Positions 94 through 14,525 of a DNA stretch of 36,362 nt are shown piece after piece. Positions within the stretch are counted from its first letter, which is position 1, and each line of letters starts with the position of its first letter. The stretch comes from Omnitrophica bacterium RIFCSPLOWO2_01_FULL_45_10b (GTDB lineage: Bacteria > Omnitrophota > Omnitrophia > Omnitrophales > Danuiimicrobiaceae), in assembly GCA_001804205.1 (NCBI GenBank), contig MHFM01000009.1, positions 61,588 through 97,949 on the forward strand. The letters are read 5' to 3'. The position numbers and the translations under genes were made by a program. A model generated the notes under the pieces. The model did not search any database, was not told the origin of the DNA, and saw nothing but the letters and a program-made list of their open reading frames with translations.

Positions 94-1095
94 ATGATTA
101 TTGGATTAACAGGTAAAAACGGTTCGGGAAAAGGCGAAGTCGCGCGATTTTTAAAAGAGCGCGGTTTTGAATATCTTTCGCTTTCTGACGTCCTTCGGGA
201 GGAAGTAAAGCGCAGAGGCAAATCGCTGACGCGCGCCCAACTTATTCTGGCCGGGAATGAGCTTCGCAAAAAGTTCGGCCCTGATATTTTGGCAAAGCGG
301 GTTCTTGAGCATATCGACACTGACAAAAATTATGTCATTGATTCCATCCGTCATCCTTCTGAAGCAAAAGCATTAAAATCGCGCAATGGTTTTGTTTTGT
401 TGAACATTACGGCTTCTCCGCGAATCCGCTTTGAGCGCTTGAAAAAACGCAGGCGGGAAAGCGATCCGAAAACATTCCGCGAATTTGTAAAGCTTGAGCA
501 AACGGAAGCCAAAAGCTCAATCAAAAGTGATCAGCAGTTAAATCAAACGCTCAAACTTGCGGATCATACGGTTTCAAACACTGGAACTCTCGAAGCGTTT
601 CAAAGTAAGATTACAAAAATTGTGATGGCCATCGCGCATAAAAAAAAACGCCCGGATTGGGATGAATATTTTTTAGGGATCGCCAAAGTTGTTGCGCTTC
701 GCTCCAATTGCGTTAAACGAAAAGTGGCCGCGGTCATTGTTAAAGACAAACGCATTATTGCGACCGGCTATAACGGAACACCGCGCGGAGTAAAAAATTG
801 CAGCGAAGGGGGATGCCCCAGGTGCAATCAATTGACAAGTTCGGGAACAAAGTTAGATGAATGCCTTTGCTCGCATGGTGAAGAGAATGCGATTACACAA
901 TCCGCTTATCACGGCGTGAACATCAAGGACGCCACGATTTATACAACTTATTCACCTTGTTTGCTGTGCACCAAGATGATTATTAATAGCGGGCTTCACG
1001 AAGTCATTTTTAATATGGATTATCCTCTCGGAGAAACGTCGATGCGGCTTTTAAAAGAAGCCGGCGTTAAGGCCCGAAAAGTCAAATTGGATTAA
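94..1095 (+). CDS. Fusion protein: N-terminal P-loop nucleoside/nucleotide-kinase-like domain + C-terminal dCMP (deoxycytidylate) deaminase, ComEB type
   Basis: The N-terminus has a Walker A motif (GLTGKNGSGKGEV) in a small kinase-like fold of ~170 aa. The C-terminus has the cytidine/deoxycytidylate deaminase zinc motifs HGEENAI and PCLLCTKMI. Confidence 0.8.
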   Translation: MIIGLTGKNGSGKGEVARFLKERGFEYLSLSDVLREEVKRRGKSLTRAQLILAGNELRKKFGPDILAKRVLEHIDTDKNYVIDSIRHPSEAKALKSRNGFVLLNITASPRIRFERLKKRRRESDPKTFREFVKLEQTEAKSSIKSDQQLNQTLKLADHTVSNTGTLEAFQSKITKIVMAIAHKKKRPDWDEYFLGIAKVVALRSNCVKRKVAAVIVKDKRIIATGYNGTPRGVKNCSEGGCPRCNQLTSSGTKLDECLCSHGEENAITQSAYHGVNIKDATIYTTYSPCLLCTKMIINSGLHEVIFNMDYPLGETSMRLLKEAGVKARKVKLD

Positions 1096-1100
1096 CGGTA

Positions 1101-2090
1101 ATGCCTCAAAAAACACCGCTGTTACTTGAAGAAATTTACAAACCAATTCAAAATGTTCTTCCGCGCGTGGAAGAACGTATTCTCGAACTCCTCGCCACAC
1201 CCAATGAACTTTCAGGCGATGTCATTCGCCATTTTTTTCAATCCAAAGGAAAACTTTTAAGGCCAGCACTTGTCCTCTTTGGAGCCAGTTTTGGAAATTC
1301 AATTCCGGAACAAGTAATTCTTACAGCAGCAGCGCTTGAAATTTTTCATTCCGCTACGCTGATTCATGATGACATTATTGATTCCGCTTATTTGCGCCGG
1401 AATCTTCCCACCGTAAACGCCAAATGGAATTCGCAAGTTGCCGTCCTCGTCGGCGATTATCTTCATGACAAAGCGATTGAGGCTATTTTTGATACGAAAA
1501 ACGATCGGCTGATTGCAACTTTTTTAAAAACAGCAGGCATTGTTTGCGATGGCGAAATTCTTGAGCTGAAAGAGAAGAACAATTTTAATTTGAAGGAAGA
1601 AACTTATTTTACGATCATTGAACGCAAAACTGCCGCTTTACTTAGCACCTGCCTTGAATCGGGCGCCATTTTATCCGGCTTGGATGTGGAGCGTATCCTT
1701 GGCCTTAAGAAATTTGGCCTTTATTTTGGGATGGCCTTTCAAGTGATGGACGATTGCCTTGACTTCATGGGTCAGGAAAATGAATTTGGAAAAACACTGG
1801 GCGCCGATCTTCAGGCCGGAGTGCTGACGTTGCCTTTGATTCGATTGATTGCGCTTTTGGACGAAGGGGGTAAAGCCGAAATTTTTTCCAAGGTAAAATC
1901 AGGCCTTAATCGTTCCGAATTGGGAGATTTGATCCGGCTGCTTCAAGAATATGACGCGCTTGATTACTCCATCACGAAAGCGCGTGAATTTACAGAGCGC
2001 GCTTTGCTGGAACTTACCGTTTTCCCGGACTCACCCATACGCCGTAGCCTTGAAGCGCTTCTTGATTATGTCGTTGAACGAAATCGTTAG
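1101..2090 (+). CDS. Polyprenyl diphosphate synthase (trans-isoprenyl, long-chain IspB-like)
   Basis: Both aspartate-rich motifs are present: LIHDDIIDS (first DDxxD) and QVMDDCLDF (second DDxxD). Length is 329 aa. Confidence 0.85.
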   Translation: MPQKTPLLLEEIYKPIQNVLPRVEERILELLATPNELSGDVIRHFFQSKGKLLRPALVLFGASFGNSIPEQVILTAAALEIFHSATLIHDDIIDSAYLRRNLPTVNAKWNSQVAVLVGDYLHDKAIEAIFDTKNDRLIATFLKTAGIVCDGEILELKEKNNFNLKEETYFTIIERKTAALLSTCLESGAILSGLDVERILGLKKFGLYFGMAFQVMDDCLDFMGQENEFGKTLGADLQAGVLTLPLIRLIALLDEGGKAEIFSKVKSGLNRSELGDLIRLLQEYDALDYSITKAREFTERALLELTVFPDSPIRRSLEALLDYVVERNR

Positions 2091-6466: not shown

Positions 6467-6494
6467 TTGCATTTCCGAGAAACATGACTATAAT
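6467..6494 (+). promoter_or_regulatory. Strong sigma70-type promoter (TTGCAT-N16-TATAAT)
   Basis: TTGCAT at 6467-6472, a 16-nt spacer, and TATAAT at 6489-6494. It lies 57 nt upstream of the displaced tRNA 5' fragment. Confidence 0.6.
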
Positions 6495-6550
6495 AAATCC
6501 CTGCTTTGATTCCAGGGGTTTTCCTATGGATTTGCTTTTTTAAGATTGAT

Positions 6551-6637
6551 CGCGGGGTGGAGCCCCGTAAAAGCGCTTCGCGCTCACGGGGCCGCGTGAT
6601 GAGCGACGAAGGAGCGAATTTTACGCGGCAGCCTGGT
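6551..6637 (+). pseudogene. Displaced 5' fragment of the initiator-type tRNA-Met (nt 1-21), itself interrupted by a 66-nt hairpin insert
   Basis: CGCGGGGTGGAGC (6551-6563) and AGCCTGGT (6630-6637) together equal nt 1-21 of the intact tRNA at 6906. The intervening 66 nt form GCCCCGT...ACGGGGC and CCGCGT...ACGCGG stems. Confidence 0.7.
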
Positions 6638-6641
6638 GAAA

Positions 6642-6944
6642 ATGAATGAACATTATGTTTATGTTTTATGTAGTCAGAAGGACAATGAATGGTATATTGG
6701 CCAGACGGATCGGCACCCAGAAGAAAGGCTTCGAGAACATAATGCTGGTCAAATGGTCTCAACCAAATTACGACGTCCTTTGGAATTGATTTACTATGAA
6801 ATGTATCGACATAAGCAAGATGCTTTGGGCCGCGAAAAATTTCTGAAGAGCGGCGCAGGGCATAATTTTGTTCGAAAGCAACTTAGAAATTTTTTGAATC
6901 ATCATCGCGGGGTGGAGCAGCCTGGTAGCTCGCAAGGCTCATAA
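6642..6944 (+). CDS. Small GIY-YIG (URI-domain) nuclease-family protein
   Basis: YVYVLCS...WYIGQT...R..EHN...E motif pattern of stand-alone GIY-YIG proteins. Start is ATG 6642 (or GTG 6636). There is no stop before the tRNA, so the last 13 codons and the stop lie inside tRNA 6906-6982. Confidence 0.8.
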   Translation: MNEHYVYVLCSQKDNEWYIGQTDRHPEERLREHNAGQMVSTKLRRPLELIYYEMYRHKQDALGREKFLKSGAGHNFVRKQLRNFLNHHRGVEQPGSSQGS

Positions 6945-6982
6945 CCTTGAGGTCAGGGGTTCAAATCCCCTCCCCGCTACCA
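6906..6982 (+). tRNA. tRNA-Met (anticodon CAU), initiator-like
   Basis: Hand-folded cloverleaf: acceptor CGCGGGG/CCCCGCT, D arm GAGC/GCTC, anticodon arm CAAGG-CTCATAA-CCTTG, T arm AGGGG-TTCAAAT-CCCCT, CCA encoded. The 5' end is identical to E. coli tRNA-fMet (CGCGGGGTGGAGCAGCCTGGTAGCTCG) and positions 1:72 are unpaired (C:U). There are only two consecutive G:C pairs at the bottom of the anticodon stem. Confidence 0.9.
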
Positions 6983-7111
6983 TTTCTTTCATTTATTTGC
7001 CAGGCCTGAAAGGCCTGGCACTTTCAGAGGTAGAAATGATTGCGGGAAGTGGTCATCCCGTAGAGGAACGTCAAGTTCCTCACGGGAAGTCCTGCCGCAA
7101 AAGCGGCAGGG

Positions 7112-7132
7112 CAAATCCCCTCCCCGCTACCA
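7112..7132 (+). repeat. Exact 21-nt duplicate of the tRNA-Met 3' end (displaced 3' fragment, att-like)
   Basis: CAAATCCCCTCCCCGCTACCA at 7112-7132 is identical to 6962-6982. The 129 nt between them contain the stems GCCAGGCCT/AGGCCTGGC, CCCGT.GAGGAAC/GTTCCTCACGGG and CCTGCCGC/GCGGCAGG. Confidence 0.85.
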
Positions 7133-7146
7133 TACATACTGGAGAT

Positions 7147-11344: not shown

Positions 11345-12757
11345 ATGATATCAGGGCATTTTTTCACCGCCGCGTTCTTCATTTTTATTGCCTATTACCT
11401 TTTGGCAACAGCTTATTATTTGATTTTGGGCGGGGTTGGATTTTTTGAAGATCGCAAGAGAGCAAGGCAGCATCGGGAAGAAGATTACACTGCTTTTTCC
11501 GTATCCACTTTTACGATTCCCGTCAGCGTGATCATCCCCGCGCATAATGAAGAAGCCTGGATTCGCGATTCTGTCCAGTCAATCCTTAATTTGAACTATC
11601 CCGAGTTTGAATTGATTGTGGTAGACGATGGTTCGACAGACAAGACGTTAACGATTTTAAAAGAAACGCTGGAGTTGAAATTTGTTTTCAATCCCTACGT
11701 CGATCACTTCCAATCCGGAAAAGTTCTTGGGCTTTTTAAATCGAAATTATATCCGCATGTTACGGTTATCCATAAAGAAAGCGGGCAGAAAAAAGCGGGA
11801 GCTGTGAATGCAGCGCTTAATATCGCCAAATATAAGTTTGTCTGCGTGATGGACGGTGACACAGTTTTAGAGCCGGATATAGTTCTTAAAGTAATGGCCC
11901 ACATTCAAAAGGATCCGGAGCGATTGATTGGCGTTGGAAGTTATTTTGGGCTTGCCAATGAGTTCGGAATCAAAGACGGACGGGTGATCAAGAAGAATTT
12001 TTTGCGCCCGCCAACCGTAGCTTATCAAGATCTGGAATATGTTCGTTCGTTCATTGGTGCCCGGATCGCATGGAGCCGGTGGAATACAATGCCGATCGTA
12101 GCCGGCGGATTTGGATTATGGCGAAGAGATGTCTTTGTTGAATTAGGAGGCTATGATCCTCAGTATAGCAGCGAAGATGTCGAATTTACTTTTCGGGCTC
12201 ATGATTACGTTGCGAAAAATAGCAAGTTAGGTTATCAAATCTTAATGCTTCCTTATTGTGCCGGCTGGACGGAGGGCCCTGGAGATGTCAGTTCCCTCAT
12301 GAAACAGCGTAATCGTTGGCATCGGGTGACGGCCGAGGCAGTATGGGATTATAAATATATGATGTGCAATCCCCGTTACGGACGCTTCGCTTTTGTGACG
12401 TTTCCTTATTTTGTGCTTTATGAAGTCCTCGGCGTTTTTTTTGAATTAGGAAGCATTTTAATGACACTTGTTGGTTATGCTTTTGGGTTTATCGATCAAC
12501 GGTTGTTTTTTGGGATTTTTTTATTCATGGTGTTATGCCAAGCTTTGGCTTCACTGATCCCGCTTTTTGCATTTCAACGCGATCAAAAAATTTTCAACAC
12601 GAAAGAAATTTCCTATTTTGTATGTTTGGGTTGGATCGAATTTTTTTGGTATCGATGGATTATTTCATTTGCCAAACTATTAGGAACATACGATTATTTG
12701 TGCGGCGTTAGAACGTATGATCGCGTTCGGAGATTTAAGGTGAATCACTCAGGATGA
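11345..12757 (+). CDS. Processive family-2 glycosyltransferase (PgaC/cellulose-synthase-like polysaccharide synthase)
   Basis: VVDDGSTD, VMDGDTV, SEDVEF and QRNRWHR (QxxRW) motifs. One N-terminal and about four C-terminal TM helices. Confidence 0.8.
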   Translation: MISGHFFTAAFFIFIAYYLLATAYYLILGGVGFFEDRKRARQHREEDYTAFSVSTFTIPVSVIIPAHNEEAWIRDSVQSILNLNYPEFELIVVDDGSTDKTLTILKETLELKFVFNPYVDHFQSGKVLGLFKSKLYPHVTVIHKESGQKKAGAVNAALNIAKYKFVCVMDGDTVLEPDIVLKVMAHIQKDPERLIGVGSYFGLANEFGIKDGRVIKKNFLRPPTVAYQDLEYVRSFIGARIAWSRWNTMPIVAGGFGLWRRDVFVELGGYDPQYSSEDVEFTFRAHDYVAKNSKLGYQILMLPYCAGWTEGPGDVSSLMKQRNRWHRVTAEAVWDYKYMMCNPRYGRFAFVTFPYFVLYEVLGVFFELGSILMTLVGYAFGFIDQRLFFGIFLFMVLCQALASLIPLFAFQRDQKIFNTKEISYFVCLGWIEFFWYRWIISFAKLLGTYDYLCGVRTYDRVRRFKVNHSG

Positions 12758-12807
12758 AAAACAGCCCGTATTTTTGAAACCTTGAGAAGCGGAATCAAAT
12801 AAAATTC

Positions 12808-12835
12808 TTGCGGATTGGCGTGGATTCGTTACAAT
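12808..12835 (+). promoter_or_regulatory. Sigma70-type promoter candidate for the tRNA (TTGCGG-N16-TACAAT)
   Basis: TTGCGG at 12808-12813, a 16-nt spacer, TACAAT at 12830-12835. It lies 28 nt upstream of tRNA 12864. Confidence 0.5.
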
Positions 12836-12863
12836 TTTATGCCTTTAGGAGATTTTCCTTCAT

Positions 12864-12936
12864 GGCGGCGTAGCTCAGTTGGTAGAGCAAGGGACTCATA
12901 AGCCCTGGGTCAGAGGTTCGATTCCTCTCGCCGCCA
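12864..12936 (+). tRNA. tRNA with CAU anticodon (elongator Met or lysidine-dependent Ile2); CCA not encoded
   Basis: Acceptor GGCGGCG/CGCCGCC, D arm GCTC/GAGC, anticodon loop CTCATAA (A31:G39 mismatch at the bottom of the stem), T arm AGAGG-TTCGATT-CCTCT. Confidence 0.88.
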
Positions 12937-13066
12937 TTTTTAATTCCTTTGGAATGAAAAAGACTGCGGAGGAATCGAAGTGAGCCCCGTAGATGCGACT
13001 TATTAAGGAGCATCTTGCTACGGGGCGAGTGGCCGACCTGGAGTGAGCGCAGCGAACGTAAGGCGC

Positions 13067-13097
13067 CGATTCCTCTCGCCGCCACCATTTTTATTCC
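13067..13097 (+). repeat. Duplicate of the tRNA 3' end plus flank (displaced 3' fragment, here with CCA)
   Basis: CGATTCCTCTCGCCGCCA (13067-13084) equals 12919-12936. It is followed by CCA and TTTTTATTCC, compared with TTTTTAATTCC after the intact tRNA. The intervening ~120-130 nt carry GAGCCCCGTAG...CTACGGGGC hairpins and an inverted copy (GCGGAGGAATCG) of the T-arm segment. Confidence 0.8.
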
Positions 13098-13115
13098 TGT
13101 GATATAATCAAGCCT

Positions 13116-14525
13116 GTGATCCAAGAACAATTCTTAAAAACCATTCATAAATTTCGTATGCTGGAAAAAGGCGATACCGTTTTTATCGCTGCCTCAGGCG
13201 GTTGCGATTCTACAACACTCCTTCACTTGCTCACCGAAATTGCGCCGGCTTGGAAATTGAAACTTGGAATTCTCCACGTGAATCACAAATTAAGGGGCAA
13301 AGCTTCCAATCAAGATGAGGCATTCGTTAGAAATCTCGCCCGGCGCTTTAAAATTCCCGTCTTTGTAGCGCGCCTTCCTGTGGAGAAAAAAATGAAGGAA
13401 GAAAAAATTTCACTTGAAGAAGCAGCCCGCGAGGAACGCTACCATTTTTTTGAAAAGACAGCAGAGGCTAAGGGTGCCCGCAAAATTTTTTTAGCCCATA
13501 CACAGGATGATCAGGCTGAAACGGTTTTGATGCGGATTATTAACGGGACGGGGCTTCAGGGGCTTCAGGCGATTCGGCCTAAACGGAAGCTCAACAATGT
13601 TTATATCATGCGCCCCTTCATTGAAATTTCAAGGAATGAAATCAGGCGCTTTGCTCAAGTGAATTCAATCCGTTTTAGGGAAGATAAAAGCAACTGGTCG
13701 CTTCAATTTCTGAGGAACCGGATTCGCCTTAAACTTTTGCCTTTCCTCGAGCATTCATTTAATCCACAGGTCAAAAAGGCTTTGGCCCGCCTCCCTCATC
13801 TTTTAGATGTTGACCTCGCATTCTTGGAAGAAACAGCGGACATTTTTTATAAACGACTGGCCAAACAGAGAAACGAAGACGAAGTTGCTTTTCCAAAGCG
13901 ATCATTTCTTCAGCTTCGGCCTTCCATTCAATATCGTTTGATCGGCCGTGCGCTTCGAACTTTGGCGGAGGCGGAGTTAGATTTTGAGCATTGGAATACT
14001 TTTTTGGAGCGCTTGACAATGGAACGCCACTTTCAACTTCAATTGCCAAAAGGGATTCTTGCGGCTGTTTCTTCGGAAGTAGTTTGCCTGAAGCGGTCCA
14101 GAAAACATCGCATTTCTTTTTCTTATCCGCTTTTTTTGGGGAAGCCGCTTTATATCCCTGAAATTGACGCAACACTTTTCTGTGAATTGCTTTCGAAAAA
14201 GCCCCGGGTCCTGCGAAAAACAGATCGACGTTTTGATATCTTTGACGGCACAAAGCTTTCGTTTCCTCTTTTGGTCCGGAATCGTAAAGCGGGCGATCGA
14301 TTTCAGCCACTCGGTCAATCCAAGCCCGTCAAACTCAAGGGATTTTTGATCAGTAGGCATATTCCTTTTGACGACCGCGATTGCTTACCCCTTGTCGTTT
14401 CAGGAGATAGACTCGCGTGGGTCGGCGGTATTGGTATGGGTGAGATATTTAAGGTAACCAACCGCACAAAGCAGTTCATCCGTATTTTACTGAGGGGTCG
14501 GGATATTTCCCGACCCCTCATATAA
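13116..14525 (+). CDS. tilS: tRNA(Ile)-lysidine synthase
   Basis: PP-loop [14 protein letters not shown] and [10 protein letters not shown] motifs, plus the C-terminal TilS substrate-binding region. GTG start. The last ~10 codons are encoded by the hairpin at 14491-14520. Confidence 0.9.
14491..14520. repeat. GAGGGGTCGGG hairpin element, copy 1
   Basis: Perfect 12-bp stem TGAGGGGTCGGG / CCCGACCCCTCA with a 6-nt loop. A near-identical 13-bp copy is at 19461-19492. Confidence 0.7.

Follow-up and report, generated by a model that had tools for sequence, protein, structure and literature searches.

Why should an intact tRNA gene be followed, 130 nt further on, by a second copy of its own 3′ end? 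The question is raised by tRNA-CAU in the stretch of DNA analyzed here (the window, 36,362 nt of contig MHFM01000009.1 from Omnitrophica bacterium RIFCSPLOWO2_01_FULL_45_10b). The last 18 nt of this gene (CGATTCCTCTCGCCGCCA, 12919-12936) recur exactly at 13067-13084, and an exact repeat of that length inside 150 nt lies far beyond chance. The first-pass annotation of the window had noticed this repeat together with its T-rich flank, and the coordinates (12919 and 13067) bear it out: TTTTTA(A)TTCCT follows both copies (from 12937 and from 13088). It had also remarked that only the distal copy encodes CCA, and in the sequence CCA does stand directly 3′ of that copy (13085-13087) and is absent from the functional gene. 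The ORF downstream of tRNA-CAU, with its start at 13116, is tilS (PP-loop and TilS_C domains), and because tilS is the next gene downstream, the tRNA is probably tRNA-Ile2. The parts of the locus are listed below, where R1 is the covariance model of the core; genomes are coded from G000 (this genome) upwards and loci carry the letter L.

12864..12936, plus strand: tRNA-CAU, intact, CCA not encoded (Rfam RF00005, 69.9 bits; ARAGORN bounds 12863-12937)
12937..12965, plus strand: linker TTTTTAATTCCTTTGGAATGAAAAAGACT, 29 nt, its start resembling the flank 3′ of the distal copy
12966..12976, plus strand: 5′ arm GCGGAGGAATC, 11 nt, reverse-complementary to tRNA nt 57-65 and to 3 acceptor nt; it provides the 5′ strand of helix P1
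12977..13067, plus strand: R1 core, 91 nt, three-way junction (model R1, 112.4 bits, E = 1e-28)
12977-12983, plus strand: J1/2 of the core, GAAGUGA
12984-12991 paired with 13019-13026, plus strand: P2 of the core, tip variable
13027-13030, plus strand: J2/3 of the core, GAGU
13031-13039 paired with AGGCGCC at 13061-13067, plus strand: P3 of the core, GGCCGACCU, with the variable P4 hairpin between its strands
13067..13087, plus strand: displaced copy of tRNA nt 56/57-73 plus CCA, its nt 57-65 being the 3′ strand of P1
13088..13115, plus strand: distal flank TTTTTATTCCTG, which repeats the start of the linker in diverged form, then TGATATAAT; tilS at 13116

The nucleotide C13067 is common to the displaced copy and the GGCGCC of the core. 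The arm with the base that follows it (GCGGAGGAATCG, 12966-12977) is an inverted copy of the T-loop and the 3′ strand of the T-stem, in which 4 nt are deleted as compared with the acceptor part. Within the distal flank, an extended -10-like TGATATAAT lies at 13100-13108, 8 nt ahead of the tilS start, and a promoter scan of the flank (13088-13115) called no full sigma-70 site. Because this -10-like sequence sits right after the displaced tRNA end, tilS may have a promoter of its own there.

The tRNA-fMet locus and other inserts in this genome

The first-pass annotation had described the same architecture at tRNA-fMet and had taken the two loci for equal-sized, related inserts of a small non-autonomous element that targets tRNA 3′ ends. 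The features of this second locus are as follows.

6906-6982: tRNA-fMet, comparison locus, not R1
6983..7133, plus strand: spacer and displaced end of tRNA-fMet, with one hairpin and a dispersed ~42-nt double-hairpin repeat (~7058-7099)
7112-7133, plus strand: copy of tRNA-fMet nt 56-76, 3′ of the 129-nt spacer

The duplicate and its 129-nt spacer are real, as the 22-nt CAAATCCCCTCCCCGCTACCAT is found at 6962 and again at 7112. The proposed kinship of the two inserts did not survive. Global alignment of the two spacers gave noise without real similarity, and the R1 model, run over the whole window with filters off, had the tRNA-CAU copy as its sole match and left the fMet spacer unmatched. When that spacer was compared with 41 related genomes, the only part that recurred was the ~42-nt double hairpin, a dispersed repeat. 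On these three grounds (noisy alignment, no R1 match, a different repeat), the fMet insert was ruled out as a second R1 copy, and since it is not one, the near agreement of the spacers (129 and 130 nt) is a coincidence. As to the module that the two spacers were said to share, GAAGTG (7046 and 12977) and the foot CCCGTAGA..ACGGG (7057 and 12986) do occur in both; nothing else is common, and a literal search of the genome returned only the two copies in the window. The shared module was rejected as an element, its common part being the foot of a widespread hairpin type. What remains of the small non-autonomous element is the tRNA-CAU spacer, which is ORF-less and has hundreds of relatives, but the fMet insert does not belong with it.

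Immediately 5′ of R1 arms, one meets repeatedly a hairpin type that has the foot CCGT(G/A)(A/G)(A/G)...(Y)(Y)TACGG and a single bulged base. Such hairpins are found in the linkers of L030, L039, L047, L056, L198 and L200 and at window positions 7057-7086 and 6553-6580; R1's own P2 is of the same type, as are hairpins in the fMet inserts. By its sequence, the CCGT-foot hairpin seems to be a repeat family of REP type in these genomes.

Upstream of tRNA-fMet (window 6467-6944) lies a copy of the first 13 nt of the tRNA, so that both the 5′ and the 3′ end of this gene are duplicated; after this copy come hairpins, a D-loop fragment and a 102-aa GIY-YIG ORF whose end falls inside the tRNA. Elsewhere in the genome, a downstream copy of the gene's own 3′ end was found at 5 of the 46 tRNA genes. 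A second full R1 copy was found at none of the tRNA genes of this genome, where R1 is represented by the one full copy and by two core-deleted ectopic copies on contig C33. The latter (..GCGGAGGAATCGAAGGGAGC joined to CGATTCCTCTCGCCGCCA; 12438-12648, locus L018 ~1040-1250, minus strand) are 143 nt apart and keep the CAU-type linker, the arm and the displaced piece. Both lie upstream of an ORF for a 274-aa membrane protein, one of them abutting its ATGGCG start, and both are followed by TGATTTTCC. Three more tRNA genes carry 3′-end copies with non-R1 cores, tRNA-Ser GGA on contig C62 (6277-6368) among them. At tRNA-Arg CCG on C12 (83753-83828, minus strand), a partial tRNA copy is split in the T-loop between nt 56 and 57 by a 67-nt hairpin insert, and a second Arg-like pseudo-tRNA is present at the same locus. 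The tRNA-Gly GCC gene on C68 (4141-4212, minus strand) has an arm of its own (GCGGGAGAATCGAAG) and an interval of 937 nt.

The R1 family and its fold

In BLAST comparisons with relatives, the 3′ two-thirds of the tRNA-CAU spacer and the displaced end were conserved at 76-80% identity, and the matches lay beside other tRNA genes. Within the same order, a covariance search recovered ~375 R1 copies, spread over 68 of 96 genomes and numbering as many as 19 in a single one; within the phylum Omnitrophota, R1 is present in 76 of 151 genomes from many families. At least 119 stretches matched in a pattern scan of species-representative genomes, and nearly every one carries the label Candidatus Omnitrophota. 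R1 is patchily distributed: a genome has between 0 and 19 copies, and several genomes have none although their completeness is 95-97%.

The module is 95-115 nt long and ORF-less. A tRNA on the same strand lies within 400 nt upstream in 112 of 132 distinct copies, 32 tRNA species being represented, and nearly all copies are found 10-80 nt 3′ of an intact tRNA in the same orientation. The integrated order is intact tRNA, locus-specific linker (often a terminator hairpin), arm, core, and tRNA nt 57-73 in direct repeat, which sometimes continues into the flank. In 89 of 111 copies, this displaced piece agrees with the tRNA at 17 of 17 positions. Its start lies at C56/R57, and the arm stops just ahead of the GAA of the core, in all cases examined. 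The other end varies: among the 111 copies, nt 73 (in 21 of them) and the end of CCA are the most frequent limits of the exact repeat, with tails that reach 80 nt and more, and at Leu-UAG, Gly-GCC and Ser-UGA in G052 and at L056 it takes in 40-80 nt of native hairpins 3′ of the tRNA. Since many repeats extend into the flank, insertion always at the last base of the tRNA was rejected as a general rule. The arm is exactly complementary to the local tRNA over 6-12 nt from nt 57 (mode 7-8 in 111 members), and the complement may reach nt 57-65(68). Over the first 12 nt, arms match the local tRNA at 8.5 positions on average, against 6.1 for other tRNAs.

Eleven aligned copies follow a common plan, in which the arm is followed by GAAG(G/U)GAGC, a variable hairpin, GCG(G/A)G(U/G)GGCCGACC(U/C)G, a second variable hairpin, GGAAGGCGCC and the copy of the local tRNA from the T-loop to the 3′ end. 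RNAalifold folds them into a three-way junction: the arm pairs with the displaced end as P1, a long variable hairpin makes up P2, and P3 (GGCcGaCCU with AGGCGCC), which bears the variable P4 on top, abuts P1. The inverted T-arm copy had been noted at first pass as able to pair with the tRNA 3′ segment, and both RNAalifold and covariation now place it opposite the displaced 3′ end as helix P1. When 38 copies were scored, pairing cells amounted to 95.5%; shuffling the columns lowered this to 79%, and sliding the partners to ~42%. Of 26 pairs, 20 had changed on both sides. P2 contains 18 G:U vs. 2 A:C pairs, and because of this excess the tRNA-sense strand is taken to be the strand that folds. 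P1 has no such bias (10 G:U vs. 12 A:C), which is the expectation if its complementarity is templated at the DNA level. At the gathering thresholds of Rfam 15, the tRNA alone reaches score. The R1 core is a conserved, covarying structure without a gene.

At L020/L028 (G022 C18) and L023 (G038 C23), the gene after tRNA-Arg(ACG) and R1 has the HAE...PCxxC motifs of a deaminase, and from these motifs we presume it to be tadA, the editor of that same tRNA. The candidate tadA beside tRNA-Arg(ACG) would be a second adjacency of a tRNA and its modifier, like that of tRNA-CAU and tilS.

Gain, loss and the search for an enzyme

A comparison of orthologous tRNA-CAU/tilS loci in relatives, as had been suggested at first pass, did find sites free of R1. 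In G009 the spacer is 19 nt long, and G004 and G005, of the same genus, have other fillers in this position and no R1. At tRNA-His in genus g12, the G042 site is empty, the tRNA being followed directly by TTTTCTATCTCAAATAGCGG, and G052 has two identical units of terminator-linker, arm, core and nt 57-73 before the homologous flank TTCTTTATCTCAAAGAGCAG. Because the G052 units carry the linker and the empty G042 site provides the comparison, the linker is counted as part of the inserted unit. Perfect tandem units also occur at tRNA-Thr in G067, and there are further arrays elsewhere. Such comparisons of orthologous loci show R1 to have been gained and lost. R1 also forms tandem arrays and occupies occasional non-tRNA sites.

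The median identity of cores is 0.75 between different tRNAs of the same genome, 0.56 between different genomes at the same tRNA, and 0.53 in the background. The similarity within genomes could reflect gene conversion instead of recent transposition. As regards CCA, the two repeat copies may disagree, and they do so either way round (the window copy and L186 vs. L042 and L053), which suggests that they can stem from different lineages.

Arm-like sequences (GGGAATTGAAG, GAGGGAATGAA) also stand 3′ of tRNA-His without an R1 core, at L217 (G048), L216 (G051), L219 (G039) and L226 (G036), in some of these loci at the end of a different hairpin element. These core-less arms may have arisen by deletion or may belong to another element family that shares the arm.

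A protein linked to R1 was sought by clustering the ORFs of 30 and then 80 R1 loci, and only host genes recurred across loci (EF-Tu, trigger factor, LeuRS, ThrRS and a deaminase); small GIY-YIG ORFs were seen at 3 of the first 30 loci, and none recurred among the 80. Profile searches were also made in R1-rich genomes. Reverse transcriptase (PF00078) had no match in G052, G035 and G067, which hold 11-14 R1 copies each. For the Y1 HUH transposase (PF01797), the copy-rich G052 gave two matches, and G035 (with 14 R1 copies) and G067 (with 11), each of 94-95% completeness, gave none. IS110-type recombinase (PF02371) was matched in none of 5 R1-rich genomes, and TnpB/Cas12-like nuclease (PF07282) had no match over the cut-off in 5 R1-rich genomes. 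Two Xer-like (XerC/D-like) recombinases are encoded in all genomes tested, with or without R1, and are therefore uninformative on it. Each R1-rich genome has at least one further P4-like integrase, and these are diverse, each at its own tRNA gene. The extra tyrosine integrases were rejected as the R1 enzyme: they are diverse and unlinked to R1, and the R1-free G016 has an ortholog of one of them. BLAST against phage records gave no R1 match, and none of 80 viral contigs picked by a loose pattern matches R1. R1 matches none of the RNA or mobile-element families searched, and a literature search found no published description of such a tRNA-linked element.

Readings of R1 and comparison with known systems

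Taken together, the sequence data make it reasonably probable that R1 is a non-autonomous mobile (integrative) module, which would enter tRNA genes in the T-loop between nt 56 and 57, leave the tRNA intact and be moved in trans. Relative to an empty site, the event could be worded as the placement of a block of nt 57-73, linker, arm and core at the T-loop 56/57 boundary or, equivalently, as the placement of linker, arm, core and nt 57-73 after nt 73; by either wording, the tRNA would stay whole and one copy of its 3′ end would be displaced. The first-pass idea that the insert supplies a replacement 3′ end is plausible as one of these two sequence-equivalent descriptions. On the tRNA-sense strand, the arm and the displaced end would pair as P1 and close the three-way junction, P1 would imitate the target duplex, and the junction of the core with nt 57 would come to lie at the foot of the stacked helices. 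The folded single strand may then be the site of recombination or strand transfer. The acting form would more likely be DNA than RNA, because copy-rich genomes gave no reverse transcriptase match, and the mobilizing enzyme would act in trans. On reaching a new tRNA, a short arm could dock first and be perfected afterwards. Since tRNAs hardly differ in nt 57-62, such re-targeting is plausible, with only 2-4 positions of the arm having to change, whether through selection for P1 or through templated correction of an imperfect inverted repeat, both of which are possible.

Several observations count against a mobile R1. The arm is short and partly universal (the 8.5 vs. 6.1 matches of 12 given above), the run-on of repeats 40-80 nt into the flank is not predicted by a single fixed cut site, and this genome has only one full copy. 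Selection for a fold on the sense strand would suit a functional RNA equally well. If R1 is mobile, a ~100-nt gene-less element colonizes essential single-copy tRNA genes without killing its host, which would survive thanks to docking at the conserved T-loop and to the full tRNA left upstream. A target-matched arm combined with a conserved junction also raises the question of whether targets are chosen by base pairing and whether an enzyme reads the fold.

It is conceivable, although rather unlikely, that R1 is instead an ncRNA useful to the host, a trailer of the tRNA transcript that controls 3′ processing or stability or serves as a decoy for tRNA-binding factors, and that it owes its spread to local duplication and its retention to selection, not to mobility. 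Such an RNA would fit a conserved tRNA-sense fold in which G:U pairs are tolerated, a module that is always oriented with the tRNA and close behind it, and a displaced end that is identical to the tRNA in 80% of copies. Terminator prediction calls none in the linker between tRNA-CAU and R1 in the window (12937-12965), but a canonical terminator stands between tRNA and R1 in many other linkers. A host function is also hard to reconcile with the patchy occurrence, including the absence of R1 from several nearly complete genomes (95-97%), with empty sites in close relatives and with identical tandem units and ectopic copies, and R1 is unmatched by Rfam families.

R1 could also be a by-product of break repair, which we regard as unlikely. 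An endonuclease (e.g., a small stand-alone GIY-YIG enzyme) would cut the T-loop, and template switching would capture structured repeats and duplicate the 3′ part of the gene. Consistent with this, unrelated inserts share the 56/57 boundary in this genome (R1 at tRNA-CAU, the hairpin repeat at tRNA-fMet, the core at tRNA-Gly on C68 and the 67-nt insert at tRNA-Arg), the right boundary of the repeat is variable, and P1 lacks strand bias, as templated copying of DNA predicts. GIY-YIG genes are found in 94 of the 96 genomes, and some adjoin tRNA or R1 loci. However, their number per genome does not track that of R1, for which reason GIY-YIG was rejected as the R1 partner, and of the 7 small GIY-YIG genes of this genome, just 2 have a tRNA nearby. 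Passive filler would also not be expected to show a covarying fold or strongly conserved junction sequences.

We give only a slim chance to R1 being a new class of protein-less, guide-bearing mobile element, in which the arm would pair with the T-arm of the tRNA gene or transcript and the junction would either catalyze strand transfer at the 56/57 boundary or recruit a general host enzyme. Were this so, target choice would be programmed by nucleic-acid pairing, with no protein encoded by the element. Very unlikely, in our view, is a self-acting RNA, i.e., an intron-like ribozyme or guide whose arm aligns the T-loop and whose core cuts and joins at the 56/57 boundary, a kind of "redundant intron" with a spare 3′ exon. 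The conserved junction nucleotides do resemble a catalytic or protein-binding core, either copy of nt 57-65 can serve the arm as partner, so that either junction comes to the foot of P1/P3, and the element encodes no protein. Yet no known ribozyme or intron family resembles R1 even at E ≤ 10, a permissive Rfam scan of 12800-13150 having given only chance-level matches. Fixation in DNA would need a reverse transcriptase, which is unmatched in G052, G035 and G067, and repeats that run into a flank of untranscribed appearance would be left unexplained. A decayed att remnant (CIME) of an ordinary integrase island once seated in the tRNA gene, which had been named at first pass as an alternative, with the remark that no integrase remains, is barely credible: as its signature, tyrosine-integrase integration does leave the tRNA 3′ end in direct repeat from the T-loop onwards, such elements stripped of their genes are known (PMC5704250) and P4-like integrases do lie beside tRNA genes in these genomes, but decay would not yield the same conserved, covarying structure of ~100 nt hundreds of times at 32 tRNA species, R1 loci have no linked ORF or integrase, and the integrases present are diverse, each at its own tRNA.

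R1 appears to lack a defining feature of each of three known systems, namely integrase elements and CIMEs, attC/CTX sites, and IS200/IS605. Williams in 2002 reportedly sorted integration within tRNA genes into sublocation classes, one of them in the T-loop. A CIME is a tRNA-integrated integrase element whose genes have been lost (PMC5704250). Like R1, tyrosine-integrase elements and CIMEs are flanked by direct repeats that cover the tRNA 3′ segment from the T-loop on; they leave the tRNA intact by supplying a copy of its end, and they accrete in tandem at the displaced end (PMC5704250). In contrast, R1 measures only ~100-200 nt, has no tyrosine or serine recombinase ORF at its loci and presents one conserved core at 32 tRNA species; it also has a target-complementary arm and a covarying single-strand fold, neither of which is a feature of att sites.

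Folded single-strand sites are known from the attC of integrons and from the attP(+) hairpin of CTX phage, the latter being used by XerC/D. As in R1, an inverted pair ~90 nt apart folds on one strand into a stem that imitates a duplex target, structural conservation is strand-specific, and after integration the inverted pair stands next to one junction. The R1 consensus differs in having no visible GTTRRRY/RYYYAAC core sites or dif-like sequence, a strongly conserved three-way junction in place of a variable loop, and a stem whose sequence follows the local tRNA. In IS200/IS605, the Y1 transposase is guided by pairing over 4-5 nt, and insertion takes place 3′ of a fixed 4-5-nt site and produces no direct repeats. 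Their miniatures (PATEs, REPs) resemble R1 in being non-coding, strand-specific, hairpin-rich and multi-copy, and in IS200/IS605, as in R1, a short internal sequence pairs with the flank at the cleavage site. R1, in contrast, is flanked by direct repeats of 17 to >80 nt and has an arm of 8-12 nt, and the Y1 transposase expected for PATE or REP-RAYT systems is unmatched in two copy-rich genomes. OMEGA guide RNAs (TnpB omega-RNA) and the bridge or seek RNAs of IS110/IS1111 differ from R1 in that TnpB is unmatched in 5 R1-rich genomes and the IS110-type recombinase is matched in 0 of 5; retroelements (retrons, group II introns and tRNA-primed elements) differ by the unmatched reverse transcriptase in G052, G035 and G067. 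Unlike a MITE, R1 has an inverted pair that consists of target tRNA sequence and changes with the tRNA, and the length of its duplication varies.

R1-type modules break assemblies and leave pseudo-tRNA fragments that confuse annotation, and they would explain many of the "att-like" repeats at tRNA genes in uncultured phyla. Nested insertions are seen at L192 (G052 C5) and L222 (G046 C10), where hairpins have been inserted into both the D-loop and the anticodon loop of a tRNA-Ala pseudo-copy, and where the displaced 3′ pieces are split in turn by further hairpin inserts of 40-60 nt.
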